From positions 97,270-161,269 of the forward strand of contig CAVUUM010000026.1 of the NCBI GenBank assembly GCA_963744665.1: 64,000 bases of DNA, in the 5' to 3' direction. The notes under the pieces are model-generated. The model made no database searches, had not been told where the DNA came from, and saw only the letters and a list, made by a program, of their open reading frames with translations. The DNA comes from an uncultured delta proteobacterium. GTDB taxonomy: Bacteria; Desulfobacterota; Desulfobacteria; Desulfobacterales; B30-G6. This document shows positions 14,280 to 28,946 of the stretch, piece by piece (position 1 is the stretch's first letter; every line of letters begins with the position of its first letter). The position numbers were made by a program, and so were the translations under genes.

Positions 14280-14843
14280 ATGAAAAAAAACAACATTATC
14301 AAAGCAGCGACCCGCTTTTTTGCCTCACAGGGTTTTGACGGAACGACAACCAAGACAATCTCAGACAAAGCCGGTGTAACAGAACCACTTCTGTACTATC
14401 ACTTTTCCGGAAAAGATGAAATCTACACATCGATTTTTGATTCGATCTTTTCTGAATACTTCAACCAATTGGACGTGTTGAAAACGGAAACCAATACCCT
14501 GTTTGAAAAAATTGAAAGCCTTTTTCTGGTACACTTCACGCTTGTCAAAAAAATGCCCAATGAAATGGCTCTCATTTTGTCTCCCCGACCCGCAAAACTA
14601 AACGACCCGGACAACATTTACACAAAAAACACAAAACAACACAAGAAATGGCTGAAATCCTATATCAGCGACTGTTTAAAGAAAGGGATCGATTCCGGTG
14701 AGTTTAATCCCGTTCAGATTAAAGAGACCACCAGCATCATCATCATGATGCTCAACGAAATCCTTCATAAAAAAGAATATAAGGACACCCAAGCCATGCG
14801 GGATTCTGTGATAGGTTTCTGGCGAAAAATTCTGGTGTCCTGA
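14280..14843 (+). CDS. TetR-family transcriptional regulator
   Basis: 187-aa ORF with the N-terminal HTH AATRFFASQGFDGTTTKTISDKAGVTEPLLYYHF. Confidence 0.85.
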   Translation: MKKNNIIKAATRFFASQGFDGTTTKTISDKAGVTEPLLYYHFSGKDEIYTSIFDSIFSEYFNQLDVLKTETNTLFEKIESLFLVHFTLVKKMPNEMALILSPRPAKLNDPDNIYTKNTKQHKKWLKSYISDCLKKGIDSGEFNPVQIKETTSIIIMMLNEILHKKEYKDTQAMRDSVIGFWRKILVS

Positions 14844-15114: not shown

Positions 15115-16500
15115 CTATATGAGTCCTTTGCTCTCTAATCGCTTGACACAATTGATGTCAATATCCAGGATTTTGGCAATACGAATTTTAGCCTCAATTC
15201 CCTTCACACATCCAGGTAGTGGGGAAAGACTGCCCATCTCCAAATCTTCACGGATTTCCGTCATTACCACCGGATCGGAAAGATCATGAACTGAAACACG
15301 CAACTTGTCTGCCACATAGGCCTTGGCGTCGTTTATCTTCATACCACGGGTCATCTGCATTCGTGCCACCAGATCTCCGGCAGCCCGCATTCCACCCATG
15401 CCCGAGGCAATAGCGTGGGAAATAGCCATGCCTAACGGATCACCTACGCCAACCTACAACCCGTCGAGCCGGCAGATTTCCACCATGGCCGCAGAGGCGC
15501 GGGATGTAATGTCCACCGGCGGGTGATTGGTCATGGGAACACCGCCGACGCCCATACCCATGTTCGCATGGATCGGAATGTTGGCCACGTCACAGCAGGC
15601 TTTGGTAAAAGTAATGGCCCGAGCCAGATTCCAGGGGCAGGAATGATTGGTTTTGACATTGACCACCGGTCCAAAAATTGTCACGCCGGCTTTTTCCGCC
15701 ATCCTGACTTGATCATGGGCATACATACCGGCCAAGCGTTCGCCCTGGTACCTCAAATCCCCGTGCATTCCTAGAACAAATTCCCCTGCCATTCCAAGTT
15801 CAATACAGATACCGGGATACTTTTCATTCAGAATTTCAGAAGCCTTCAAACCGGCAAGGAAATCAGCATCCCCCGCCGCACCTACGGTATCAAGATTGAC
15901 ACCGTCTGCTCCGGATTCAACCATGGCGCCGGCAACAAAGACAATATCTTTGACAGCGGCCTCTACTGAATTCTCATAAGATTTTTGAACTTCGTCAATC
16001 TTTCCCATGGTCAACAGTTCCGAGGGATTTTGAAAAGGACCGTCCGGTTGGGTATACAAACCCAGGTTCGGCATGGCACCGTAGAAGAGTGGCGGGTGCG
16101 TCACCATCAATACTTGCTCCAGAACGGTTTGTTCCATGCTCACAATCGGTTTGACCTGCTTGTAGCTGTAGTCGATATGACCCAGTTCAAGGGTATCCGC
16201 TCCCAATAGCTTTTCATAGACCTGCAATGCTTGAACACGATGGACATCGATGGCAGTGCGCATCATCTTGATGGGTGCACCGTCATAAGAAAGTACGACT
16301 TCATTACCAGGTTCCACACCCACAAAACGATACGGTGTCATAAAAAGATCGAACAGGTATAGCAGCGCTTCTTTTGAAAGAGGGGCAATCCTGCCGTATT
16401 TGGCAGCATTTTCCGCACCTTCAACCAGATCGCTCATGAGTTGTTTTTCAGTCATTTCAACGGGAAACCCATCACCCATTCGTGTCATTATTTTTCCCAT
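15115..16500 (-). CDS. mtbB: Dimethylamine:corrinoid methyltransferase with in-frame UAG (pyrrolysine) at 15456..15454
   Basis: ORFs 15454..16500 and 15115..15429 share one frame and are separated only by TAG plus 8 sense codons. The joined sequence reads ...[45 protein letters not shown]. That matches my memory of the region around the Pyl codon in Methanosarcina MtbB. The N-terminal part ([40 protein letters not shown]) is also MtbB-like. The joined length is 461 codons. Confidence 0.85.
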
Positions 16501-16949: not shown

Positions 16950-18449
16950 CTATTTGGAGACTTTGAGTTCCTTTTCTGCTTCCTCCACAATCGCTCGCAT
17001 GGTGGCCAGAACATCATCGGGCAGCGGGTCAGGCTTGTGGGTTTCTAAAATACGCCGCGCCTCTTCCGAAGCCCTTGCATATATATCTGTACTGCCGGAG
17101 GCCTCCCATTCTTCCCGCATCCTGCGATCGATGAGTTTAGGCTGGGATTGAGACCGCATGTGTTTGAACGTGGCATCATGACTGAGGAAATTTTTCCCTA
17201 TCCCAATCTCCCGAATGACGTCCACTGCCAGCGTTTCGTCGTTGACGGGGATTCCATGCAGCAAGAATTTGATCATCTTGGCAAATTCGTTGTCCATAAC
17301 CAGTTGGCCGAAATCGATGGTCATGCCCATTTCGATCATACCCAGGCCGTAAATCAGGTTGGCACCTGCCAACGCTGGTAACAGGCCTGTGATGGTTTTC
17401 TCGTGACCGGACTGGGCATCACAGACTTTGCTGTCGCCCTACCCGCCAGCGACCCAGCTGGGAAGCAGATAGTAGATGGACATTTGAGCCACCGCGGCGT
17501 TGATCAAAGCACACTCAGGAGATCCCACGGATGCGGCAGCCAGCCTCAGATCCATGGCCGTCGTGGAACTGCCGTAAATAAATTTCGCTCCTTTACGGGT
17601 ACACTGACTGAGCACAAGTCCTCCAAGGATTTCCGCGTTATGATCCACCAGGGTGCCGGCCAAGGTCACTGGAGACGAGCCACCGGCCATGGCCATGGAT
17701 AAAACATTTACGGCCAAATCTGCCCGAGCGGATTCCATGATAATTTCACAGCTGTCCTTAACAAGCTGCAGCGGACTCACCGGGCAGGTAATAAACGAAA
17801 TAATGGGACGCTCTTTCAGTTTTTCCTTGCCGCCGACAATGGCAGCGGCCATTTCAACAATTTTTTTGGTCAAATATCCATTGCCGGACCCCATGAACCC
17901 ATGTTTGGTCGTGTTGGGCAGCCAGGCTTCGGCGTTATGAAGCTGCACCGTCTGCGTCGGCACATCACTGGCGCCAACGGCCCGTTCATAAACATCGATT
18001 TCGCTCAGATAGTCGGCAATCAGAGCCGAGGCAGCCACATCCGCCTTGGTCGTCTCCCGATGCTCCCCCGTGTATGGGTCGTTAATAAAAACGCCTTCCC
18101 CAAAATTAGTGAAGCCTACGCGGTTTTTTTCCATAATAAAGTCGTTTTTTGAATCACGCCCGTACAACACAATTTTTGGCGGTGCTGAACGGATGGCGTC
18201 CTCAACCATGTGAGGGGGGAACTTGGCTATACGGTTCTTTTTGTCGATGACAGCGCCTCCGCCATCGAGGACAGCCAGCGCCTCTTCATCCTCGAAAAAA
18301 AGACCGGTCTTTTCCAGAACCTCAAGTGTGGCCAGATGAATTTCATCCATTTCCTCATCGGTAAAGACCTTGAATTCTAGGCCACCATCCCTGCTTTTTC
18401 CTGCTCGCATATTGCGTCTCAAGAAATCACCTCCTTTTGGTTTTACCAA
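16950..18449 (-). CDS. mttB: Trimethylamine:corrinoid methyltransferase with in-frame UAG (pyrrolysine) at 17441..17439
   Basis: ORFs 17439..18449 and 16950..17372 share one frame. I read the codons across the gap as ...[50 protein letters not shown] with no other stop. The joined length is 499 codons, with the UAG at codon 337. That size and position fit my memory of archaeal MttB. Confidence 0.85.
17385..17426 (-). other. 10-bp stem-loop in the mttB mRNA, starting 12 nt 3' of the in-frame UAG
   Basis: In the sense RNA, GUCUGUGAUG (17426..17417) pairs with CAUCACAGGC (17394..17385). That gives 9 Watson-Crick pairs plus one G-U and a 22-nt loop. The G-U position is a C-A mismatch on the opposite strand, so the structure is specific to the sense strand. 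Confidence 0.4.
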
Positions 18450-18674: not shown

Positions 18675-19436
18675 ATGAACTGGATAATGGACCCGAATAT
18701 CTGGCTGGCCTTATTGACATTGAGTGCCATTGAAATTGTGCTAGGTGTCGACAATATTGTTTTTATCGCTATTTTAGCCGGCAAACTTCCCGAACATCAA
18801 CAGGCCAGAGGACGAACAATCGGATTGATTTTGGCAATGGCCACACGAATTCTGCTTCTTTTTTCCATTACCCTGATCATGAAATTGACCCAACCGCTTT
18901 TTGTGATTTTTTCTTTTGAGATATCGGGTCGTGATATCATTCTGATTGCCGGTGGATTGTTTCTTCTGGTGAAGAGCACACTCGAAATTCACAGCAATCT
19001 GGAAGGCGAAGAAGCACACGTACAACAGGACCGGGTCAAAAAAGCAACATTTACAAGCGTGGTGACCCAGATCATGATCCTGGACATTGTTTTTTCAATC
19101 GATTCCGTGGTCACGGCCATTGGCCTGGCCAAGCAACTCAGTATCATGGTTGCGGCCATTGTTATCGCCGTTATCGTCATGATCTTTTTAGCGGGGCGCA
19201 TCAGTTCGTTTGTCGATAATCATCCAACCATCAAAATGCTGGCGCTGAGCTTTCTTTTGCTCATAGGCATCTCCCTGGTGGGGGAGGGGCTGGCGCTGCA
19301 CATCCCCAAGGGGTATATCTATTTTGCCATGGCGTTTTCGATATTCGTCGAAATCCTCAACATGAAAATCCGCAAGCATCGGGTCAAACCTGTAAAACTT
19401 CGCAACCCCAGGTCGGCAAAAATCATCCACACATAA
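18675..19436 (+). CDS. TerC-family integral membrane protein
   Basis: 253-aa ORF. LALLTLSAIEIVLGVDNIVFIAILAGKLP is typical of TerC/YoaE. There are multiple TM segments. Confidence 0.8.
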   Translation: MNWIMDPNIWLALLTLSAIEIVLGVDNIVFIAILAGKLPEHQQARGRTIGLILAMATRILLLFSITLIMKLTQPLFVIFSFEISGRDIILIAGGLFLLVKSTLEIHSNLEGEEAHVQQDRVKKATFTSVVTQIMILDIVFSIDSVVTAIGLAKQLSIMVAAIVIAVIVMIFLAGRISSFVDNHPTIKMLALSFLLLIGISLVGEGLALHIPKGYIYFAMAFSIFVEILNMKIRKHRVKPVKLRNPRSAKIIHT

Positions 19437-19588
19437 AATCGACTCACCATTAAATTAACCGCTTGACTTTCAATTCAACTTCCCTCTAAAGCACATGTCA
19501 TCAAATCGTTCCGATTTATAAGGGAAAATCAACACAAAGATTGGGACAAAAGACATTTTTGAGATAGTTTCTGCAAAGGAACCATGGC

Positions 19589-21595
19589 ATGACAGTTGTA
19601 TTGGGTATCGATACGGGCGGGACATATACAGATGCGGTTCTGATCAATTATGAGAACGGCAAAGTCCTGTCGAGTGCCAAGTCTTTGACGACGCACCAGG
19701 ATCTTTCCACCGGTATCCATGCGGCTGTCACGTCCGTTATGACCATCAATCGCAAAGCTATTTCCCCCAAAAAAATCTGCCTTGTGGGTCTGTCCACGAC
19801 CCTTGCTACCAACGCCATTGCAGAAGGGCACGGCGTCCCTGTTTGTCTTCTATTGATAGGGTATGACCGGGACTTGATCCATCAATACCGTTTCCAACAT
19901 GCCTTGGGAACACCCAATGTGGTCTATCTGCAAGGTGGGCATGACCAGCAGGGCAACGAACGTCGACCCCTGAACGAAGATGCCGTCAAAAATACCATTT
20001 TAAAGTGGCGAAAAAAAATCAATGCCTTTGGCGTCTCGGGCTATTTTGGTGCATTCAACCCGGAACACGAATTAAAGGTCAGAACATGGATAGAAGACCT
20101 TACAGATCTTCCGGTGACCTGCGGTCATGAACTTTCCACGCGTCTGGACGCCATCCGCAGGGCAACAACCGTGGCCCTGAATGCCCGATTGATTCCCATC
20201 ATACAAGATCTGATATTCAATGTCCGTGCCACCCTGAAAGCCCTGTCCATTCCGGCACCACTGATGGTGGTAAAGGGTGATGGAAGCCTGGTTCAAGCGG
20301 ATTGGGCCTTGAAGCGGCCCATCGAAACGGTCCTTTCCGGCCCGGCCGCAAGCGCACTGGGGGCCCTGAAACTCACCGGGGGAAAAAATACATGGGCTGT
20401 GGACATGGGCGGAACCACCACTGATATTGTCGAGCTCATTGAAGGTGCGCCGTCGCTCAATCCGAATGGAGCCTGTATTGGCGGATGGCGGACCATGGTT
20501 GAAGCCGTAGATGTTCACACCATAGGACTTGGAGGAGATAGCCATGTCCGTGTGTCTTCCGAAAACCAGTTGGTTATAGGTCCTAATCGTGTCATACCGC
20601 TATGCAAACTGGCCAGTGAATACCCGGACAAGGTAATGGGTACACTGAGAGCCCTTGGTAATTCAGACAAATCTGATCTGGATGCTACCCAGTTTCTGAT
20701 TTCGGGAAAAGCAGAACAACCCCAACTGTCTCAAAACGACGCAACACTATTGGCAAAATTGGATGATGGACCCCAACCGCTGACAACCATCACCGGCCCC
20801 GCTGCTTATGCAGACCCATGGATTTCAAAACGTATCCAGAACCTTGCAGAAACAGGTCTAATTCAATGCGCAGGCTTCACTCCAACGGATGCGCTGCACG
20901 TCCTGAAATGTTTTCAGGAATGGGATGCAGAGGCATCTCTACTGGCGGGCAAACTTCTATCCACCCATCTTGGATTGCCCACAGAAGTATTCTGCAAACA
21001 GGTGGTGGAAACCGTGTCCAGAAAGACCGCAACAGCCATTGCATCCAAGGCTATCACAGACGAAATGGGGAATCCTGATTGGAAACAGGTGCAAACTGAC
21101 GGGTTTCTGCTGAATAAAGCCCTCAAACAAGACCAGAAAGGAAAATTGATTCCAGAAATCAGATTGAAGCATCCCCTGGTCGCTCTGGGTGCGCCGGTAA
21201 CAGCATATATGCCCGGAGCCGCAGATATCCTGAGGACCGGGCTTTCAATTCCTGAATTTGCGGAGGTAGCCAACGCTATCGGAGCTGTCAGCGGTCAAAC
21301 GGTTTTACGACTCAGAATCCGCATCCGACCCATAAGCGGAAGTCAAAACGTCCGGCTTCTTTCCCCTCACAGCCCCAGGGATTTTTCTAATATTGAAGAA
21401 GCCGTTGAATATGCCATGGGTCACATGACACCCCTGGCAGAAGATATGGCACGTCAGGCCGGTGCCAAACATGTGCAGGTGCAGGTAATCCGAAAAGAAA
21501 AAAAGGCCAGAGCGAAAGGAAACAAAGAGGTATTTCTTGAGACCGAATTGACTTTCATAGCCCTTGGAAGACCGGCCATGGCATTTAAACAGTAA
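19589..21595 (+). CDS. Hydantoinase/oxoprolinase-family (ASKHA-fold ATPase) protein
   Basis: 668-aa ORF. The N-terminus VVLGIDTGGTYTDAVL and the later AVDMGGTTTDI are the two phosphate-binding motifs of the hydantoinase A family. Confidence 0.7.
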   Translation: MTVVLGIDTGGTYTDAVLINYENGKVLSSAKSLTTHQDLSTGIHAAVTSVMTINRKAISPKKICLVGLSTTLATNAIAEGHGVPVCLLLIGYDRDLIHQYRFQHALGTPNVVYLQGGHDQQGNERRPLNEDAVKNTILKWRKKINAFGVSGYFGAFNPEHELKVRTWIEDLTDLPVTCGHELSTRLDAIRRATTVALNARLIPIIQDLIFNVRATLKALSIPAPLMVVKGDGSLVQADWALKRPIETVLSGPAASALGALKLTGGKNTWAVDMGGTTTDIVELIEGAPSLNPNGACIGGWRTMVEAVDVHTIGLGGDSHVRVSSENQLVIGPNRVIPLCKLASEYPDKVMGTLRALGNSDKSDLDATQFLISGKAEQPQLSQNDATLLAKLDDGPQPLTTITGPAAYADPWISKRIQNLAETGLIQCAGFTPTDALHVLKCFQEWDAEASLLAGKLLSTHLGLPTEVFCKQVVETVSRKTATAIASKAITDEMGNPDWKQVQTDGFLLNKALKQDQKGKLIPEIRLKHPLVALGAPVTAYMPGAADILRTGLSIPEFAEVANAIGAVSGQTVLRLRIRIRPISGSQNVRLLSPHSPRDFSNIEEAVEYAMGHMTPLAEDMARQAGAKHVQVQVIRKEKKARAKGNKEVFLETELTFIALGRPAMAFKQ

Positions 21596-21789
21596 GCTGT
21601 AAGCACTGAGCGCATGCGGCTTAACGCTCAAAACGTATACCTCAGATTTATGTCTTGGCTTTTTTTATAAAATATCATAATTTTGAATGGAAACGACAGG
21701 TCCCTGGCCCGAAATTGTTTTACATTGATATAAAATGAGGCATCGCCGCTCATACGGCAACATACTAACGCTACTAATAGGAGCTCACC

Positions 21790-22587
21790 ATGTTAATTGT
21801 TGGAGAACTGATCAATGCAAGCCGAAAGACCATTGGCACGGCCATTGAAATAGAGGACGGGGAAAGCATAGCAAAAATCGCCAGAGATCAGGCCGAAGCC
21901 GGTGCTGATTTTATTGATGTCAATGCCGGTGTTTTTGTCGGTAAAGAGCCTGAATACCTGGAATGGCTGGTGAAAACTGTTCAAGCAGCCGTCGATAAAC
22001 CCTGCTGCATAGACAGCCCGGACCCCAAGGCCATCGAAAAAGCGCTGGCTGCCCACAAAGGCATAGCCATGATCAATTCCATATCCCTGGAAAAAGAACG
22101 CTATGACACCCTGATGCCCATCATTGCCGGAACCGATCTTAAGGTGGTAGCCCTCTGTATGAGCGACGAAGGCATGCCGGAGACCACCTCGGATCGAATG
22201 AGAATTGCCGATAAACTGATCAACGGTCTCATCCAGAATCGTATCCCCTTGGAAAATATCTATGTAGATCCACTGGTTCAACCCGTATCCACGAACAACA
22301 ACTTTGGAGTGGAATTTCTGAACGCCATCCAACAAATTATGAATACATTTGACGGTATTCACACGGTTTGTGGTCTTTCCAATATCTCATTTGGCCTGCC
22401 TCTCAGAAAATTTCTGAATCAGACATTTATGAGCATGGCCATTGCCAAGGGACTTGATGGGGCCATAGTCAACCCGCTGGACAAGAAAATGATGGCCAAT
22501 ATCATTGCAGCAGAAGCCCTTGCCGGCAGGGATGATTATTGCATGTCATACCTCAAGGCCTACCGGGCAGATCTCTTTGCATCTTAA
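21790..22587 (+). CDS. Methyl-corrinoid:tetrahydrofolate methyltransferase (pterin-binding, MtrH/AcsE-like)
   Basis: 265-aa ORF with GELINASRK, AGADFIDVNAG, INSISLE and VCGLSNISFGLP. These are hallmarks of pterin-binding (DHPS-like) methyltransferases found in bacterial corrinoid methyl-transfer systems. Confidence 0.75.
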   Translation: MLIVGELINASRKTIGTAIEIEDGESIAKIARDQAEAGADFIDVNAGVFVGKEPEYLEWLVKTVQAAVDKPCCIDSPDPKAIEKALAAHKGIAMINSISLEKERYDTLMPIIAGTDLKVVALCMSDEGMPETTSDRMRIADKLINGLIQNRIPLENIYVDPLVQPVSTNNNFGVEFLNAIQQIMNTFDGIHTVCGLSNISFGLPLRKFLNQTFMSMAIAKGLDGAIVNPLDKKMMANIIAAEALAGRDDYCMSYLKAYRADLFAS

Positions 22588-22637
22588 CGGAAATGAACAT
22601 ATGTGTTTTCACAATTTGCGATTGAAAGGAGTGTAGC

Positions 22638-23279
22638 ATGTCTGAAATAATTTACCAGGAAGCCATGGAGGCTATCCTGAAGGGTGATGTGGACAAAGCC
22701 GTTGACACCGCCAAAAAGGGGATCGACATGGGTATGGATCCTTTGGACCTGATGAACAACGGTTTCATCTCCGGCATCAATGAAGTGGGCGACCTTTTCG
22801 AAACCGGCAGACTTTTTCTGCCCCAGCTGGTTATGTCCGCCTCGGCCATGGAAAAAGCCACGGAAATTATCAATGCGGCCATTCCAGAAGGTAAGGGAAC
22901 CATATCCGGGAAAGTTTTGGTGGGGACGGTCGAGGGCGACGTACACGACATTGGAAAAACCATTGTCGTGGCCCTGTTCAAAGCCAATGGCTTCGATGTA
23001 CTGGATATCGGAAGGGACGCACCCATCGAACGTTTTATTGACGAGGCTGAAAAATTTGGAGCCGATATTATCGGTTCGAGCACCCTTTTAACCACCACCA
23101 TGGCCGTGCAGAAACAGATCGAAGAGGAGTTAAAAAAAGCCGGTATAAGGGATAAATACAAAACCCTTGTGGGCGGTGCTCCTGTAACCCAACGATGGGC
23201 AGACCGAATCGGTGCCGATGCCTATGCCCAGGATGCAAGCGACGGTGTGCGCAAGGTTAAGGAATTGTTAGCAGGCTAG
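22638..23279 (+). CDS. Corrinoid (B12-binding) methyl-carrier protein, MttC/MtbC-like
   Basis: 213-aa ORF with an N-terminal helical cap and GTVEGDVHDIGKTIV (DxHxxG) plus SSTLLTTTM and GGA. It ends in TAG (23277..23279). Confidence 0.85.
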   Translation: MSEIIYQEAMEAILKGDVDKAVDTAKKGIDMGMDPLDLMNNGFISGINEVGDLFETGRLFLPQLVMSASAMEKATEIINAAIPEGKGTISGKVLVGTVEGDVHDIGKTIVVALFKANGFDVLDIGRDAPIERFIDEAEKFGADIIGSSTLLTTTMAVQKQIEEELKKAGIRDKYKTLVGGAPVTQRWADRIGADAYAQDASDGVRKVKELLAG

Positions 23280-23382
23280 GAAGATTGGCGGCTGGGAGGC
23301 CGGAAAGCTGCTATCAGCTTATAGCGGACAGCCAATAGGAGCCTCCAGGCATATAACTTCCAAGCTTTCCAGCTACGACTGC

Positions 23383-23456
23383 GGGGAGTGGATCGCAATG
23401 GGATCGTGTGGACTCTAAATCCACATAGACGGGTGCAACTCCCGTACTCCCCGCCA
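23383..23456 (+). tRNA. pylT: tRNA-Pyl, anticodon CUA (amber suppressor), CCA encoded
   Basis: Folded by hand. The acceptor stem pairs GGGGAGU with ACUCCCC. The anticodon stem is 6 bp (UGUGGA/UCCACA) with loop CUCUAAA, placing CUA at 23415..23417. The variable loop is 3 nt (UAG). The T arm is ACGGG-UGCAACU-CCCGU, without the canonical T-loop sequence. The discriminator is G, followed by CCA. A long anticodon stem, short variable loop and single base between acceptor and D stem are the known oddities of tRNA-Pyl. Confidence 0.9.
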
Positions 23457-23533
23457 TTGATCCTTCGGATACCAGTGGCTCTTAGCCCTTGGCTTGTAGC
23501 TAAGCTAAAACCTAAAACATAACACCTAAAACA

Positions 23534-24376
23534 ATGACAATCTCCTGGACACAAACACAGATACGACGACTGAATGCCTTGAATGCCCCGGGCGCGGCAT
23601 TGAAAAAGACCTTCGATGACAAACCCGCGCGTGAGAATGCTTATCAAGCCTTGGAAAAATCACTGGTGATGACTCAGCGACAGCAGTTGGCGGAATTTCA
23701 AACCACGCCCGGCTGTCCCGAACTTTGCCGGCTTGAAACCAGGCTTGTCCGTATTCTGACGCAAGCCGGATTTGCCCAGGTAACGACCCCCATCATCATG
23801 TCCAGGGGACTGTTGAAGAAGATGTCAATCGATGCAAAGCACCCGCTCAATTCCCAAATATTCTGGCTCCAGGACGATAAATGCCTGCGACCGATGCTGG
23901 CGCCCCATCTCTACTATCTCCTGGTTGACCTGCTCCGCGTTTGGGAACGACCTGTACGAATCTTTGAAATTGGCCCCTGCTTCCGAAAAGAATCCAAGGG
24001 AGCGAAACACGCCGGTGAATTTACCATGTTGAACCTGGTTGAAATGGGTACCCCCGAGAAAACCCGGAAAGAAAGAATCCTGAATCTGGGCGCACGTGTG
24101 GCCACGGCAGCAGACGTGAAAGACTTTCGTTTTGAGACAGTGTCCTCGGAAATATACGGCGACACCATCGATATCGTCGCCGGAAAAGACAATCTCGAAA
24201 TTGCCTCTGCCGCCATGGGGCCACATCCTCTGGATCGGCCATGGAAGATAAGTGAATCCTGGATCGGAATCGGTTTTGGTCTCGAACGCCTCCTGATGGC
24301 CTCCCACCAATCCAGGAACCTTGCCAGGTTCTGTCGAAGCCTGTCTTATTTAGACGGCGTCCGGTTAAATATTTGA
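23534..24376 (+). CDS. pylSc: Pyrrolysyl-tRNA synthetase, catalytic C-terminal polypeptide (bacterial split form)
   Basis: 280-aa ORF with class II aaRS motifs LRPMLAP, FEIGPCFRKES and IGIGFGLERLL. It lies immediately 3' of the CUA tRNA. Confidence 0.9.
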   Translation: MTISWTQTQIRRLNALNAPGAALKKTFDDKPARENAYQALEKSLVMTQRQQLAEFQTTPGCPELCRLETRLVRILTQAGFAQVTTPIIMSRGLLKKMSIDAKHPLNSQIFWLQDDKCLRPMLAPHLYYLLVDLLRVWERPVRIFEIGPCFRKESKGAKHAGEFTMLNLVEMGTPEKTRKERILNLGARVATAADVKDFRFETVSSEIYGDTIDIVAGKDNLEIASAAMGPHPLDRPWKISESWIGIGFGLERLLMASHQSRNLARFCRSLSYLDGVRLNI

Positions 24377-24479
24377 GCACTCGGGAAGTTTTTAACCATT
24401 TTGGAGCGGGAGGAAGAATCCACGACCCCGGTACGCCAGCACATGTATAAGGCACCTAAAGAAAGAACAATATTCGATA

Positions 24480-25676
24480 ATGAAAGTAGCGATCATCGGT
24501 GGTAAACTTCAAGGGCTTGAAGCGGCATATCTTGCCGAAAAAGCCGGCTGGGATGTGACAATCATCGATCGGGCGCCCGATGTGCCGGCTGCGGGTCTCT
24601 GCCACCAGTTTTTGCTTGCCGACATTACCAACCAAACAGACTTGAAGCGCTTTCTGCAACCGTTTGACCTAATCATACCGGCCCTGGAGAACCATGACGC
24701 TTTAGCGTGTCTCCAAAATTGCGCACAAAATGACAGAACACGCATTCTTTTCGATTTCGATGCCTATGCCATCACCTCCTCCAAGATTGAATCGGACAAA
24801 CTGCTCGCCGGCATCCACATCCCCACCCCATCATCCTATCCCGACGGTGGTTTTCCTGTTATCGTCAAACCAAGTAGAAGCAGCGGCAGCAAGGGAATTT
24901 GTGTTGTTCATGATTCAAAACAACTTGAATCTCATCTTGCAACGGCACCCGGAGAGCAGGTCATTCAGAAATTTGTCCATGGCCCCTCATACTCCCTGGA
25001 AATCATCGGCTACCCGGGAAACTATTGTCCCCTCCAGGTAACCGAACTTGAAGTGGATCCGGTCTTTGATTGCAAGCGGGTGATTGCCCCCTCGGGTCTT
25101 TCCCAAAAAATGATTGCGGATTTCGAACATATCGCCGTCACCACTGCCAACGCCCTAAAATTAAAGGGTTTGATGGACGTAGAAGTCATTCTGGATTATG
25201 AGGTACTGAGAGTTCTCGAAATCGATGCGCGCCTCCCCAGCCAGACACCCATAACCGTGCATACCTCCACCGGTGTCAACATGCTTCAGTTGCTGGCAGA
25301 GCAACATTGCCGGCCGTCACACAATGGGGCGGGTATTGCTGTTGCCCAGAGAGGTGTCGTGTATGAGCATATCAGGGTTAGCGGCAGCACATTGGTTGTC
25401 ACGGGTGAACATGCCATGGCATCCGCAGGCGCTCTCCATCTGGTAGAGGATTTTTTCGGTGCCGATGAAGCCATCACCTCCCAGACGGGCAACCGGACGG
25501 ATTGGGTGGCGACATTGATCATTTCCGCAGAAAACAGAACCACGGCATGGGAGAAACGGGAGGCGGTTATCGCCGATATTATGCGTTTTTTTAATCTCGA
25601 CACCTACAGGGACCACAGCCCGTTCCATTATGGTGCTGACGAGCCATCCCTGACGTTGAAAGGATCATTCAAGTGA
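24480..25676 (+). CDS. pylC: Pyrrolysine biosynthesis ATP-grasp ligase
   Basis: 398-aa ORF. MKVAIIGGKLQGLEAAYLAEKAGW, FDFDAY, VIVKPS and LEIDARLPSQTP run parallel to my recollection of Methanosarcina PylC. Confidence 0.85.
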   Translation: MKVAIIGGKLQGLEAAYLAEKAGWDVTIIDRAPDVPAAGLCHQFLLADITNQTDLKRFLQPFDLIIPALENHDALACLQNCAQNDRTRILFDFDAYAITSSKIESDKLLAGIHIPTPSSYPDGGFPVIVKPSRSSGSKGICVVHDSKQLESHLATAPGEQVIQKFVHGPSYSLEIIGYPGNYCPLQVTELEVDPVFDCKRVIAPSGLSQKMIADFEHIAVTTANALKLKGLMDVEVILDYEVLRVLEIDARLPSQTPITVHTSTGVNMLQLLAEQHCRPSHNGAGIAVAQRGVVYEHIRVSGSTLVVTGEHAMASAGALHLVEDFFGADEAITSQTGNRTDWVATLIISAENRTTAWEKREAVIADIMRFFNLDTYRDHSPFHYGADEPSLTLKGSFK

Positions 25677-26521
25677 CCCGGCTGACATCAAGTGATATTC
25701 AAGGCATTTCCGAAGAACTGCCCGCATACGAATCATCACTGATGAAAAAAACCGGTTGCTCCCTGCGACAGCTTGCCTGTCGGGCAATGAAAGTGACTGA
25801 AATAGATGTCCAGACATCTTTGGAACACACCCTTGTGGGTGTCATACCCATGACATCGGGTGGCGGCGTATTAAAAGGATTTTGTGGGACTGTGGCAAAG
25901 ATTGTCAACCACATCGGTTGCAGAGCCTTTGCTACACGGAGTACGGATGCTTCGGGTATCGCCGAAGCAGTGGAAAAGAAGGCCGACATCCTCATGTTTG
26001 CCGATGAAAATCGGTTTGTCGCCCTTGATATGCAGCACCGCAAACTCATGGACAATGCCGATGCAACCGGCAGGGGCTTCGTGGCGGGTCTGAACCTCAT
26101 GGCAGAGAGCTTGAACGATCAAAAGGTACTTGTCCTGGGATGTGGTCCGGTGGGGCAGAGCGCGGTGAAGGCCCTGGCAAAAACGGGGTGCCGTATTTCT
26201 GTCTACGACATCGAAACAAAAGCATACGACCGCGTATCAACGGAATTCAAGAACGACCCGGATATTGAGATTCAATTTTTGTACAACCTTGATCTGGCAT
26301 TGCATCAACACGCACTCATGGTCGATGCATCCCCGGCGGGCGGTTTCATTGGGGCGCGGCATATCAGTCCCCATACGATTATCAGTGCTCCCGGTATGCC
26401 TCTTGGCCTTGACAGGTCAGCGCTGGCAGCCATCGGCGGCAGACTCCTCCACGACCCGCTTCAGATCGGGGTGGCAACCATGGTGGTCGGTGCTTTAGCC
26501 CGAACATTTCATGAAATTTGA
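25673..26521 (+). CDS. pylD: Pyrrolysine synthase (NAD-dependent dehydrogenase)
   Basis: 282-aa ORF with IPMTSGGG, ILMFADENRF, VLVLGCGPVGQSA and SAPGMPLG, as in PylD. A 4-nt overlap joins it to pylC. Confidence 0.85.
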   Translation: MTRLTSSDIQGISEELPAYESSLMKKTGCSLRQLACRAMKVTEIDVQTSLEHTLVGVIPMTSGGGVLKGFCGTVAKIVNHIGCRAFATRSTDASGIAEAVEKKADILMFADENRFVALDMQHRKLMDNADATGRGFVAGLNLMAESLNDQKVLVLGCGPVGQSAVKALAKTGCRISVYDIETKAYDRVSTEFKNDPDIEIQFLYNLDLALHQHALMVDASPAGGFIGARHISPHTIISAPGMPLGLDRSALAAIGGRLLHDPLQIGVATMVVGALARTFHEI

Positions 26522-26593
26522 CGAGAAATTTTTATTTATCTTTACATGGCAGCAGGTTGTCATATTATATCAAGTTAATCAGAATATCGAACG

Positions 26594-26935
26594 ATGAAAT
26601 CAAAAAAACCAGCCAAACGATTTTACCGCAAACGGGTGGAGCTTTTCCGTCTGATCGAGAAGATAAAACTCTGGCCAGCCAGAAGCGGTCTCCTCCACGG
26701 TATCAAATCCATCGACATCATGGGTGACCAGGCCCGTATCACAACCCATTGCAATAAAACATTCATGGTGAACAACTCCCGAAACAGCCGCGCGGCAAGA
26801 TGGCTTCGCAACAAATGGTTCAATGGGGCCTGCGGCGCATGCGGTGTCCCTGAGTGGAAACTAGAAAAATATGCGTCCACACAATTCAGACGTCACTTTG
26901 GGTCACAATTGCTGAAAAAGACTGGACCCGAATAA
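26594..26935 (+). CDS. pylSn: Pyrrolysyl-tRNA synthetase N-terminal tRNA-binding polypeptide
   Basis: 113-aa basic ORF (KRFYRKRVELFRLIEKIKLWPARSGLLHGI...HCNK...ARWLRNKW...CGACG). Its size, position after pylD and Cys/His pattern fit bacterial PylSn. Confidence 0.75.
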   Translation: MKSKKPAKRFYRKRVELFRLIEKIKLWPARSGLLHGIKSIDIMGDQARITTHCNKTFMVNNSRNSRAARWLRNKWFNGACGACGVPEWKLEKYASTQFRRHFGSQLLKKTGPE

Positions 26936-27115
26936 CCTTTGTAATCAAAGGGTATAACACCCAAACCTATCGTTGAACTTAACGTTTTGTCTTCTTGATT
27001 GTCAATCCTATACCATCGATATCGGAAAGAAGAGGTCGTTGCAGTAACCCTCGAAGAACATATATCAGGTTCTGCCAAACGTGATCAGCGAATGAGCGTC
27101 AACCACCAGGTTGTT

Positions 27116-27805
27116 CTATGACACACCAAATCCCGCTTCAATTTTTGGATCATAGGCAGCCTTTCGAGAAGGACAATCCTTGCGGTCACAAAGCTGGCAA
27201 CTGATAAATGGAACCTCTGTGGGAAAATAGATACCGGACACCGATTTTGCAGGAATCATCAGGCAGCTGCTGTTAAGGGAAACATTGATGGGGGTTTTCC
27301 CATCCCCAAACAAAGCAAACAAAGGCCGCTGTTCTTCCAGAGGCCAATCTGTCAATGACCCCGGGCTCATAAAGGACATACCCTCGAGGCCATACCCCGC
27401 CTGCAGCGTTTGTTCGAGATAGTTTCGCACGGTACTCAGGGCAATGTTGCCGATCACATCCAGATAGTATTTCACCACCAGGTCTTTCTGGGCATCCATC
27501 TGCTCCAGATAATGGCTTCCGATAGTAACAACAAATGGGAACACCCGCTCCACCGCTGCCAGGTTTTTTGCCAGCACCCGGCTCCTGAAACGCACCCCAT
27601 CAATACCGATGAGTTGGTCCTGCTTTTCATCGATATAGCAAACCCGGTAGACCGCTTTTGCCCGAATATCCGGCAAGATCGTCTGGATGAGAGTCTTGAC
27701 TTCGTCCCAGCGTGCACCCCTTTTCAGGTGAAGCTGGCGCCTGATTTCCCCAAAAGGCAAAGATAAAGGTATTTTTTCAAGAATATGCATTTTTTCTTCC
27801 AGCAT
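27116..27805 (-). CDS. Methionine-synthase activation-domain-like protein (corrinoid reactivation domain) with a C-terminal Cys cluster
   Basis: 229-aa ORF. SPGSLTDWPLEEQRPLFALFGDG...INVSLNSSCLMIPAKSVSGIYF resembles the MetH AdoMet/activation domain. The C-terminus reads CQLCDRKDC. It ends in TAG. Confidence 0.55.
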   Translation of the reverse strand: MLEEKMHILEKIPLSLPFGEIRRQLHLKRGARWDEVKTLIQTILPDIRAKAVYRVCYIDEKQDQLIGIDGVRFRSRVLAKNLAAVERVFPFVVTIGSHYLEQMDAQKDLVVKYYLDVIGNIALSTVRNYLEQTLQAGYGLEGMSFMSPGSLTDWPLEEQRPLFALFGDGKTPINVSLNSSCLMIPAKSVSGIYFPTEVPFISCQLCDRKDCPSRKAAYDPKIEAGFGVS

Positions 27806-27855
27806 CCGAACATCTATATCCGCTCAAAATATATTTTCAAGCGTTTTATCACGTT

Positions 27856-28946
27856 AGGGGACGTTCCTTTATATGTTGACAATCTAAAATTTGTCTGCAA
27901 TAAAACACAAATGCCACGCCAATCAAGAATAGACGCCCCTGGGGCTTTGCATCATATTATTGTGAGAGGCATCGAAAAAAAACCAATTTTTCGAGATGAT
28001 GCCGATAGAGATAACTTTTTGGAGCGATTGAAAAACATCTTGAAAGATGACGCAGCATTTTGCTTTGCATGGTCCCTAATGCCCAATCATGTTCATTTGC
28101 TTTTGAAAACCGGAAACACATCGATCTCAACTATTATGAGACGGCTTCTTACGGGTTACGCAGTCTATTATAATCGCAAACATGATCGTGCGGGCCATCT
28201 ATTTCAGAACCGATACAAATCGATTCTTTGCCAGGAAGACACATATCTTTTAGAACTGGTAAGATATATCCACTTGAACTCCCTCCGAGCAGGTATTGTA
28301 ACGGATCTTGAGTCGCTTGATAGATACAAATACAGTGGTCATGCAACAATAATTGGTAACGATAAGAACGACTGGCAAACTACTGAATATATTCTTGCTA
28401 TTTTTTCTGAAAGGCTATCACAAGCGCGCCGGAGATACCGGAAATACATACAAAAAGGAATATCTGCGGGGAAAAGACCGGATCTCGTTGGTGGTGGCCT
28501 TGTCAGGAGTGTTGGTGGCTGGCACGCTCTCAAGGATTTGAGAAGAAGAAAAGCGTACATGAAAGGAGATGAACGGATCTTGGGCGACAGTGATTTTATC
28601 AAAAATGTCCTTCAATCCTGTAGGGATGAATATGAACAAAAATATTTATTAAAAGCCAAAGGATACACTTTTGATACCGTTGTCGCTCGTGTCGCCGAAG
28701 TATTAGGCATGGAAAAAGCAGACGTTTTGTCAGCAGGTAGACAACCCCTACGGGTAAAGGCCAGAAGATTGTTATGTTTCTGGGCATCACGAGAACTCGG
28801 TATAACCATGGTGGACTTGGCCAAACGTTTAAAAATATCACCGTCGACCGTAAGCCAATCAGCTAGCCGTGGAGAAAAAATCGCAAAAGAAAGCAATTTA
28901 AGATTATTATGATGCAACATTATCAACTTATCAAGGAACGTCCCCT
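27856..28946 (+). mobile_element. IS200/RAYT-like unit: Y1 transposase gene bracketed by a perfect 13-bp inverted repeat
   Basis: aggggacgttcct at 27856..27868 and its exact reverse complement aggaacgtcccct at 28934..28946 flank the CDS 27911..28912. Confidence 0.6.
27911..28912 (+). CDS. REP-associated tyrosine transposase (IS200/Y1 HUH) fused to a C-terminal DnaA-C-like HTH domain
   Basis: From the Met at 27911, MPRQSRIDAPGALHHIIVRG...PNHVHLLL (HUH)...LVRYIHLN (catalytic Tyr region). The C-terminus RLLCFWASRELGITMVDLAKRLKISPSTVS is HTH-like. The ORF-track start at 27785 is probably too far upstream. Confidence 0.75.
   Translation: MPRQSRIDAPGALHHIIVRGIEKKPIFRDDADRDNFLERLKNILKDDAAFCFAWSLMPNHVHLLLKTGNTSISTIMRRLLTGYAVYYNRKHDRAGHLFQNRYKSILCQEDTYLLELVRYIHLNSLRAGIVTDLESLDRYKYSGHATIIGNDKNDWQTTEYILAIFSERLSQARRRYRKYIQKGISAGKRPDLVGGGLVRSVGGWHALKDLRRRKAYMKGDERILGDSDFIKNVLQSCRDEYEQKYLLKAKGYTFDTVVARVAEVLGMEKADVLSAGRQPLRVKARRLLCFWASRELGITMVDLAKRLKISPSTVSQSASRGEKIAKESNLRLL

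Follow-up and report, generated by a model that had tools for sequence, protein, structure and literature searches.

A probable pyrrolysine-dependent methylamine-to-folate island of an uncultured Desulfobacterales bacterium with two candidate accessory factors for corrinoid proteins

Corrinoid methyltransferase systems drive the turnover of methylamines, betaines and methanol in sediments, oceans and guts and thereby control methane and trimethylamine/trimethylamine N-oxide (TMA/TMAO) precursors. Their textbook parts list comprises a first methyltransferase (MT1), a corrinoid protein, a second methyltransferase (MT2) and a RamA-type activase. Here we have analysed a stretch of 64 kb (C26:97270-161269, hereafter the window) on the about 300 kb long contig C26 of an uncultured delta proteobacterium of the order Desulfobacterales, whose assembly (GCA_963744665.1) contains 4.77 Mb in 28 contigs with an estimated completeness of 96% and a contamination of 6%. 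The window harbors an island of methylamine genes together with a HyuA-like ATPase, termed Hyd, and a small protein with the fold of the reactivation domain of the methionine synthase MetH, termed MetHact. As judged from sequence, the island is probably a pyrrolysine (Pyl)-dependent module for the transfer of methyl groups from TMA and dimethylamine (DMA) to tetrahydrofolate (THF), in which Hyd and MetHact would serve as accessory factors of corrinoid maintenance beside RamA and not as its replacements. The following features define the island and its flanks:

14280..14843, plus strand: TetR-family regulator at the flank of the island (TetR-type matches in NCBIfam)
15115..16500, minus strand: mtbB, dimethylamine:corrinoid methyltransferase with one in-frame UAG (Pyl), obtained by read-through of TAG as O; Rfam PYLIS_2 at 15357-15456 (88 bits)
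16950..18449, minus strand: mttB, trimethylamine:corrinoid methyltransferase with one in-frame UAG (Pyl), obtained by TAG read-through; Rfam PYLIS_3 at 17342-17441 (78 bits)
18675..19436, plus strand: TerC-family membrane protein (PF03741, E 5e-47)
19589..21595, plus strand: Hyd, solo HyuA-like ASKHA ATPase of 668 aa (Hydant_A_N and first half of Hydantoinase_A)
21790..22587, plus strand: MeTr, a MeTr/MtgA-like predicted methylcorrinoid:tetrahydrofolate methyltransferase (MT2) of 265 aa (PRK07535, 352.9 bits, cutoff 259; Pterin_bind PF00809, E 9e-23)
22638..23279, plus strand: corrinoid protein (MttC/MtbC/MtgC-like) of 213 aa, the only one in the island (TIGR02370, 238.2 bits, cutoff 215.3; B12-binding and B12-binding_2; GDVHDIG, a DxHxxG motif)
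23383..23456, plus strand: pylT, tRNA-Pyl with anticodon CUA (ARAGORN)
23534..26935, plus strand: pylSc, pylC, pylD and pylSn, a cassette without pylB (TIGR02367, TIGR03909, TIGR03911 and TIGR03912, all above cutoff)
27116..27805, minus strand: MetHact, 229 aa, with the fold of the MetH reactivation domain (matches of structure and profile), convergent on pylSn
27785..28912, plus strand: IS200/RAYT-like Y1 transposase abutting MetHact (PF01797, E 7.5e-14)

This arrangement agrees with an earlier note made from the letters of this DNA, which had placed mtbB and mttB on one strand and the genes of TerC, a 668-aa ATPase, a pterin methyltransferase, a corrinoid protein with a DxHxxG motif and the pyl genes on the other. 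The span assigned to the island in that note (18675-27805) encloses its plus-strand genes and the convergent MetHact gene, but leaves out mtbB and mttB. Their in-frame UAG codons and PYLIS elements, together with the tRNA-Pyl, PylSc and PylSn encoded in the island, identify MttB and MtbB as Pyl proteins. TAG, which is read as Pyl within mtbB and mttB, is also the stop codon of both genes and of those encoding the corrinoid protein and MetHact (15115, 16950, 23279 and 27116). We infer that MttB and MtbB would methylate one shared corrinoid protein, from which the MeTr/MtgA-like enzyme would hand the methyl group to THF for use in the Wood-Ljungdahl pathway. The proposed transfer to THF and not to coenzyme M (CoM), already put forward in the earlier note, is supported by the presence of an MT2 of the MeTr/MtgA type, the absence of a URO-D/MtbA protein in the island and a gene cluster for CO dehydrogenase/acetyl-CoA synthase (CODH/ACS) on contig C27. 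With a score of 142.6 on the CODH/ACS-specific model (cutoff 370), MeTr is not the AcsE protein of the acs cluster, and it shows 69-89% identity across related clusters.

Hyd can be assigned to the HyuA class, with both Hydant_A_N (PF05378, 114 bits) and Hydantoinase_A (PF01968, 105 bits) detected in Pfam, the latter only at profile positions 1-145 of 291, and all other Pfam matches being weak ones to MutL and FGGY. Its predicted structure (pLDDT 80) is matched by Foldseek over the whole chain to HyuA-type A subunits (E 1e-28 to 1e-22, TM 0.54-0.67), including acetone carboxylase beta, N-methylhydantoinase, acetophenone carboxylase and caprolactamase alpha, and profile matches in the PDB comprise 6yra, 7hk5, 5l9w and 5svb. 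Across 17 diverse homologues, no variation is seen in the ASKHA phosphate motifs DTGGTYTD and DxGGTTxD or in four Cys residues at positions 86, 178, 339 and 469, which are dispersed along the sequence. A Pfam search of Hyd finds neither PF14574/Raco_middle nor a Fer2 or Fer4 domain and thus no domain typical of RamA, RACo or RACE, which combine an ASKHA domain (RACo_C_ter, PF14574, with Raco_middle) and an Fe-S domain ([2Fe-2S] or 2x[4Fe-4S]) at the N- or C-terminus. The family is large, with at least 8000 database matches, many of them at more than 50% identity, in Deltaproteobacteria and Chloroflexi.

The membership of Hyd in the HyuA class by Pfam, NCBIfam and fold would also suit a catabolic hydantoinase, oxoprolinase, lactamase or carboxylase-class enzyme, which acts on N-compounds such as an N-methylated lactam or hydantoin and whose products feed the methyltransferases. 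The same holds for its induction together with the catabolism of quaternary amines, in strain DCMF and, if the protein SPO3739 described below is an orthologue, in Ruegeria pomeroyi. A catabolic role nevertheless appears improbable. A HyuB/Hydantoinase_B partner is found neither in the island nor among the families shared by at least two of the 149 ORFs flanking 80 Hyd loci, and the match to Hydantoinase_A does not go beyond the first half of the profile. Members of the family are further located in corrinoid loci of methanogens (L057, L061, L072, L076 and L081), and they are recurrently fused to DUF1638 or coupled to a protein with a B12-reactivation fold, as detailed below. The 80 loci represent a broad sample of the family with one locus per species and 36-53% identity, whose flanking ORFs were tallied with Pfam; here and in all other foreign loci, ORFs were called by a simple longest-ORF rule.

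In relatives whose Hyd shares 64-83% identity (L086-L089, L106 and L108), the gene order Hyd-MeTr-corrinoid protein-pylSc-pylC-pylD-pylSn is conserved along with the convergent MetHact, and mtbB and mttB are often found divergently oriented upstream. At 52% identity, in the pyl-linked locus L191, the genes pylC, pylD, MeTr, Hyd, that of the corrinoid protein and mttB are still together. Since the long-range synteny of Hyd turned out to be clade-dependent in the broad sample, we have surveyed the order of the window in a sample meant as unbiased, where 43 of 121 species-level genomes contain a Hyd match and from which 29 full-length Hyd loci were retrieved. At these 29 loci we find DUF1638 fused or adjacent to Hyd in 15 cases, mttB in 14, a corrinoid protein in 11, MeTr in six and RamA in three (L194, L195 and L198), with at least one out of mttB, corrinoid protein, MeTr and DUF1638 being present in 24. 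In the fusion, which occurs in 13 of the 43 genomes, DUF1638 is located N-terminal to Hyd, and Pfam displays the architecture DUF1638, Hydant_A_N and Hydantoinase_A. Among the 149 immediate neighbors in the broad sample, Pfam detects DUF1638 twice, whereas a jackhmmer search of the same 80 loci with the divergent DUF1638 of the window's own genome returned nothing. This empty search reflects a problem of sensitivity, since both Pfam and better seeds (15 of 29 loci) did find the domain. The DUF1638 gene used as seed is the only one of the genome (C15:98938-99618); it shares 15% identity with the operon-type DUF1638 and is linked to no recognisable corrinoid gene.

The association extends to genomes where Hyd is not located next to corrinoid genes. 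MTTB is encoded in 24 of 24 genomes that contain a Hyd locus lacking such synteny, in one to 21 copies, compared to one of 14 model genomes used as control. The association between Hyd and corrinoid systems therefore also holds at the level of the genome where operons are scattered; a scattered organization has been described for the mtgBCD genes of roseobacters (PMC12478193).

In case of MetHact, the earlier note had proposed a protein resembling the MetH activation domain and ending in CQLCDRKDC. The fold is borne out, but the motif occupies residues 203-211 of 229, 18 residues before the end, and is thus not terminal. The family profile of MetHact matches TM0269 of Thermotoga maritima (PDB 1j6r, E 2e-6), and its AF2 model (pLDDT 85, pTM 0.80) shows low confidence in the C-terminal tail, as expected for a segment that depends on a metal or a partner. 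Foldseek retrieves 1j6r as best match (E 1e-8, TM 0.79), followed by 8sse, 6bm5, 2o2k and 1msk, and all 19 matches with E<=0.001 are MetH activation domains. The Pfam family Met_synt_B12 (PF02965) reaches 19.4 bits at a cutoff of 25 and covers residues 158-195 only, and NCBIfam gives no match; despite this subthreshold score, we consider the assignment of the modelled structure to the MetH activation-domain fold as solid. Invariant features include PGSL..W, KSxS and the C-terminal CxxCx4-5C followed by an Arg. The motif RxxxGY, which Dixon and colleagues are said to have identified in 1996 as the AdoMet-binding motif of the MetH activation domain, is not preserved: the aligned segment reads F145-M-S-P-G-S150, where S150 is invariant and the position of the Arg varies.

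The genomic surroundings of MetHact place it next to methyltransferases. Homologues sharing 57-89% identity are found beside pyl cassettes (L087, L106, L108, L111 and L091-L093), and in a tally of 36 metagenomic loci with a length of 5 kb or more, the families met most often among 129 flanking ORFs are URO-D (eight), B12-binding (three) and Pterin_bind (three). A URO-D-like gene of 404 aa, which precedes MetHact in L091-L093, was considered as general partner and dismissed, as it recurs in few loci only. The reading frame of MetHact overlaps with the start of Hyd by 4 bp in L009, L010 and L011, both genes overlap or are directly adjacent in L014 and L128, and MetHact is located about 110 bp upstream of Hyd in L042; several of these coupled loci sit within clusters of mttB, corrinoid and pterin-methyltransferase genes. 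Hyd thus recurrently pairs with a small Cys-bearing protein, which is either DUF1638, in form of a fusion, or the TM0269-fold protein MetHact, by translational coupling. A homology between both partners, which would make them alternative versions of one fold, was rejected with a probability of 0.2% in hhalign. Taken together, conserved synteny, fusion to DUF1638, the mutual translational coupling and the co-occurrence with MttB tie both candidates of the earlier note to corrinoid systems.

The relation of MetHact to MetH raises the question whether it would work in methionine synthesis, as trans-acting, TM0269-like reactivation domain of a split enzyme, with its proximity to pyl genes being incidental and Hyd a mere neighbor. 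The genome lacks MetE (PF01717) and full-length MetH and encodes stand-alone homocysteine-, pterin- and B12-binding pieces only, and TM0269 has been deposited as 'Activation (AdoMet binding) domain of Methionine synthase'. A split MetH that shares its corrinoid protein with betaine demethylation is documented in R. pomeroyi, where MtgCD/MtgE link both processes (PMC12478193). We still regard such a dedicated role in methionine synthesis as unlikely, in light of the position of MetHact next to pyl clusters, which persists from 89% to about 57% identity, its translational coupling to Hyd inside mttB/corrinoid protein/MeTr clusters, and its lack of the RxxxGY motif needed for SAM binding. The stand-alone homocysteine-binding proteins are encoded at C7:111550-112428, C25:90949-91767 and C15:73388-74197, and pterin-binding modules in the genome are confined to the island MeTr and the AcsE of the acs cluster. 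A 1087-aa B12-binding ORF on C13 was discarded as MetH candidate: its match to TIGR02082 is weak (E 0.004) and limited to the B12 domain, and in our judgement its N-terminus resembles a fused mutase. With neither MetE nor full-length MetH, MeTr and the corrinoid protein of the island may double as split methionine synthase. If the corrinoid protein is shared in this way between methionine and methylamine pathways, the methionine role of MetHact and its role in corrinoid maintenance would converge.

The lack of a RamA-type activator, which the earlier note had emphasized, is confirmed for the window and the rest of contig C26, where a scan with RACo_C_ter (PF14574) yields no match, but it does not extend to the genome. 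Four strong matches (264-352 bits) are found outside C26. One is a 648-aa RACo within the CODH/ACS cluster on C27, another is a 677-aa RamA on C1, which a gap of 8 kb separates from a second corrinoid methyltransferase cluster, and the remaining two are orphans on C15. No activase is thus missing, because these four genes are merely unlinked, as is common, and its apparent absence results from the view on a single window of the genome. The RamA on C1 sits between two Cys-rich ORFs of about 700 aa. A fifth match at C25:63678 (25.7 bits) was rejected as RamA, since it concerns a 551-aa ORF whose near-equal counterparts of 548 aa in related loci are ABC_tran proteins; this ORF is placed just downstream of two ORFs of about 300 aa, inside an mttB/mtbB cluster on C25.

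That Hyd and/or MetHact would replace RamA as RamA-independent activase of the methylamine corrinoid protein, as suggested in the earlier note, gains some appeal from the absence of RACo_C_ter on C26 and the location of the four genomic copies at the acs cluster, the C1 methyltransferase cluster and as orphans. It also draws on the ASKHA fold of Hyd, which is found as well in the ATPase module of RamA/RACo, and on the conserved Cys motif of MetHact, which could hold a redox center. We ascribe little probability to this scenario. Besides the four RamA/RACo genes, which as activases need no linkage to their clients, RACo_C_ter is present in 113 of the 121 genomes of the order, including every genome with full-length Hyd, RamA and Hyd share a locus in L194, L195 and L198, and Hyd carries no Fe-S domain. 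A single RamA of Methanosarcina barkeri reportedly serves the systems for monomethylamine, DMA and TMA, a finding attributed to Ferguson and colleagues in 2009. Hyd-like matches in the eight RACo-less genomes of the order, which at first sight might speak for a substitution, were dismissed. These genomes hold only an unrelated subfamily of about 545 aa, found in seven of the eight (L215-L221 in G012, G026, G063, G106, G051, G052 and G120), which shows 30-36% identity, misses about 100 C-terminal residues and has no corrinoid neighbors. The earlier note had named a canonical RamA in the genome, combined with a lack of conserved synteny between Hyd and methyltransferase clusters, as evidence that would count against its proposal. 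The former is found whereas the synteny is conserved, and therefore the idea of a substitution fails while that of an accessory role survives.

We thus favor, as somewhat better than an even prospect, a mechanism where the reductive activation of Co(II) would be available from the canonical, unlinked RamA/RACE proteins and where Hyd and MetHact would assist. MetHact would probably dock on the corrinoid protein at its B12 domain, in a similar manner as the MetH activation domain, with its three-Cys motif forming a putative metal or Fe-S site in place of the SAM motif. Hyd may couple ATP to a conformational or phosphoryl step in support of reduction, repair or the loading or exchange of the cofactor. 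Together, their most likely task would be an ATP-dependent maintenance of corrinoid proteins, including a conformational opening for reduction. Both proteins are best read as members of a widespread accessory layer of corrinoid methyltransferase systems.

Several observations weigh against this interpretation. The roles proposed for the Hyd clade and the MetHact subfamily derive wholly from guilt by association. In the broad sample, mttB, a corrinoid protein, MeTr or MetHact is found within 10 kb of Hyd in only about 21 of 80 loci (from Anaerolineae, marine Alpha- and Gammaproteobacteria, Methanomassiliicoccales, Methanosarcina and Methanolobus), the immediate neighbors are very heterogeneous without a dominant Pfam family, and L189 and L190, which are among the closest orthologues in the order (56-57%), lack corrinoid neighbors. 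The control for the co-occurrence with MTTB, consisting of 14 model genomes, is crude. In the window, a distance of 5.5 kb separates Hyd from MetHact, which is encoded on the other strand, and the missing RxxxGY of MetHact makes a classical MetH-type reductive methylation doubtful. Finally, SPO3739, with same-name orthologues of about 668 aa being general in roseobacter genera, is no more than a putative orthologue of the Hyd clade, and so is MA4396, a hydantoinase/oxoprolinase whose frameshift in one M. acetivorans line evolved for switching from methanol to TMA is anecdotal.

Beyond the island, the genome contains at least five mtbB-like and about 20 mttB-family loci besides about five small corrinoid proteins, so that the single corrinoid protein stated in the earlier note applies to the island and not to the organism. 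Additional Pyl-type copies are located at C25:57243-84219 (at least three mttB and three mtbB genes, one of the latter fragmented), C14:177084-179967 (an mttB-mtbB pair) and C21:100480-101868 (mtbB). No corrinoid protein is found near these extra copies on C25, C14 and C21, and the corrinoid protein of the window may serve many methyltransferases. The second cluster, at C1:209900-228033, encodes an MttB-family protein, a corrinoid protein, a MetHact paralogue, unassigned ORFs of 311 and 460 aa and a 335-aa ORF that looks CobW-like by its N-terminal sequence; the paralogue contains 251 aa with the motifs RMGPGL and CxxCx4C.

A PylB gene was not detected in the whole 96%-complete assembly, where the best match scores 23 bits. 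In the genome of L089, with the same pylB-less cassette, pylB is located on another contig (G121:C31:9348-10385), and family-level relatives also have pylB, whereas in L191 (L191:36-1061) pylC immediately follows a pylB reading frame that is interrupted by a single TAA. Since relatives carry pylB elsewhere, the loss of an unlinked gene in the 4% gap of the assembly is as probable as its true absence. The Y1 transposase adjoins a MetHact homologue also in L106 (L106:3680-4699), a metagenomic relative of 80% identity, which suggests that it is an old resident of this junction, and it is a possible cause of local rearrangement. A TetR_N gene is found beside the same cluster in L086, L087 and L088, and TerC, which L087 contains but which L088 and L089 lack upstream of Hyd, is not a constant member of the module. 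Scans for promoters and terminators gave signals no higher than expected from shuffled sequences.

For the window itself, the analysis describes a standard methylamine-to-folate module of Desulfobacterales. If Hyd and its Cys-bearing partners were required, in-vitro reconstitutions and heterologous expression of corrinoid methyltransferases may be short of a factor. Under the same condition, the genome-based prediction of methylotrophy would gain a marker, and DUF1638, which is genetically proven but mechanistically blank, would obtain a partner and a testable mechanism.

The transfer of methyl groups from methylamines to folate in marine Desulfobacterales is already published. In the model for marine Deltaproteobacteria, TMA is demethylated by Pyl-MttB and its methyl group passed via a TIGR02370 corrinoid protein to THF and the Wood-Ljungdahl pathway, and ramA is encoded in the genome (Kivenson et al. 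2021, PMC8318568). Our island shares with that system the Pyl-MttB, the nearby TIGR02370 protein, a metH-family pterin methyltransferase, the pyl genes, a genomic ramA and the absence of MtbA and Mcr, whereas it differs by its additional mtbB and by a cassette that lacks pylB. A hydantoinase-like ATPase is not mentioned in that work (0 occurrences).

The claim of the earlier note that a pairing of this kind had not been described is nearly right. A hydantoinase gene of 668 aa was drawn and its product measured in the glycine betaine cluster of strain DCMF (Ga0180325_114734-42), where an 'N-methylhydantoinase A/oxoprolinase' lies between the genes of MtgB and a 265-aa MtgA. With glycine betaine it reaches a higher abundance than with dichloromethane (log2 fold change -7.2), and it was left as 'Unknown' (PMC9768040). 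The lengths of 668 and 265 aa are exactly those of Hyd and MeTr in the window, and the likeness of both hydantoinases refers to length, annotation and position alone. The MtgB/MtgC/MtgA systems of DCMF and Desulfitobacterium hafniense resemble the island in their MttB-superfamily MT1, corrinoid protein and 265-aa pterin MT2; unlike the island, these glycine betaine:THF systems use a quaternary amine and an MT1 without Pyl.

Compared to RamA/RACo/RACE proteins (COG3894), Hyd is likewise an ASKHA-fold ATPase that is genetically associated with corrinoid proteins, with a presumed role in keeping cobalt active, but it lacks PF14574 and a ferredoxin-type domain, displays a HyuA-type fold over its full length and coexists with RamA, sometimes at the same locus. 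With HyuA-type A subunits (5m45, 9h03, 6yra and 5l9w), it shares the domains, a similarity over the whole chain and intact ASKHA phosphate motifs, and it differs by the absence of a B subunit, the half Hydantoinase_A profile, an identity of 14-18% and the DUF1638 fusions in its family. MetHact, in turn, is a stand-alone protein with the same fold as TM0269 (1j6r) and the MetH activation domain, to which the PG-containing loop and the subsequent beta-strand (KSxSG) can be aligned. It is unlike TM0269 and PF02965 in showing F-M-S-P-G-S in place of RxxxGY, in its extra invariant C-terminal CxxCx4-5C(P)xR and in its genomic partners, which are pyl and methylamine genes, URO-D-type methyltransferases and a HyuA-like ATPase and not the MetH core.

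A functional parallel is offered by the pair of DUF1638 and a RamA-like protein in Phaeobacter inhibens and R. pomeroyi, where a corrinoid methyltransferase of modular build depends on both DUF1638, which genetics implicates in the reactivation of B12, and the RamA-like protein (Price et al. 2018, PMC5764234; PMC12478193). In R. pomeroyi, RamA and DUF1638 are induced on N-osmolytes (PMC12478193), and SPO3739, annotated as 'Hydantoinase/oxoprolinase family protein', shares this induction with them and with MtgB2: on each of the four N-osmolytes it gains about 3.5-4.8 log2 units (PMC12478193 Dataset S1), although the main text of that study is silent on it. DUF1638 is the recurrent fusion or operon partner of the Hyd family, whereas in the genome of the window it is unlinked and MetHact takes the place of the Cys-bearing partner within the island. 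One might go further and suppose that Hyd and its Cys-bearing partner, MetHact here and DUF1638 elsewhere, form a second ATP-dependent machine for the activation or repair of corrinoid proteins, distinct from RamA/RACo and shared by all bacteria and methanogens that have corrinoid methyltransferases of the MttB superfamily or of other kinds. In this rather doubtful extension, the machine could correspond to the 'methyltransferase activation protein' (MAP), a colorless, autophosphorylating protein whose purification from Methanosarcina barkeri dates from 1996 (see the summary in PMC5007285).

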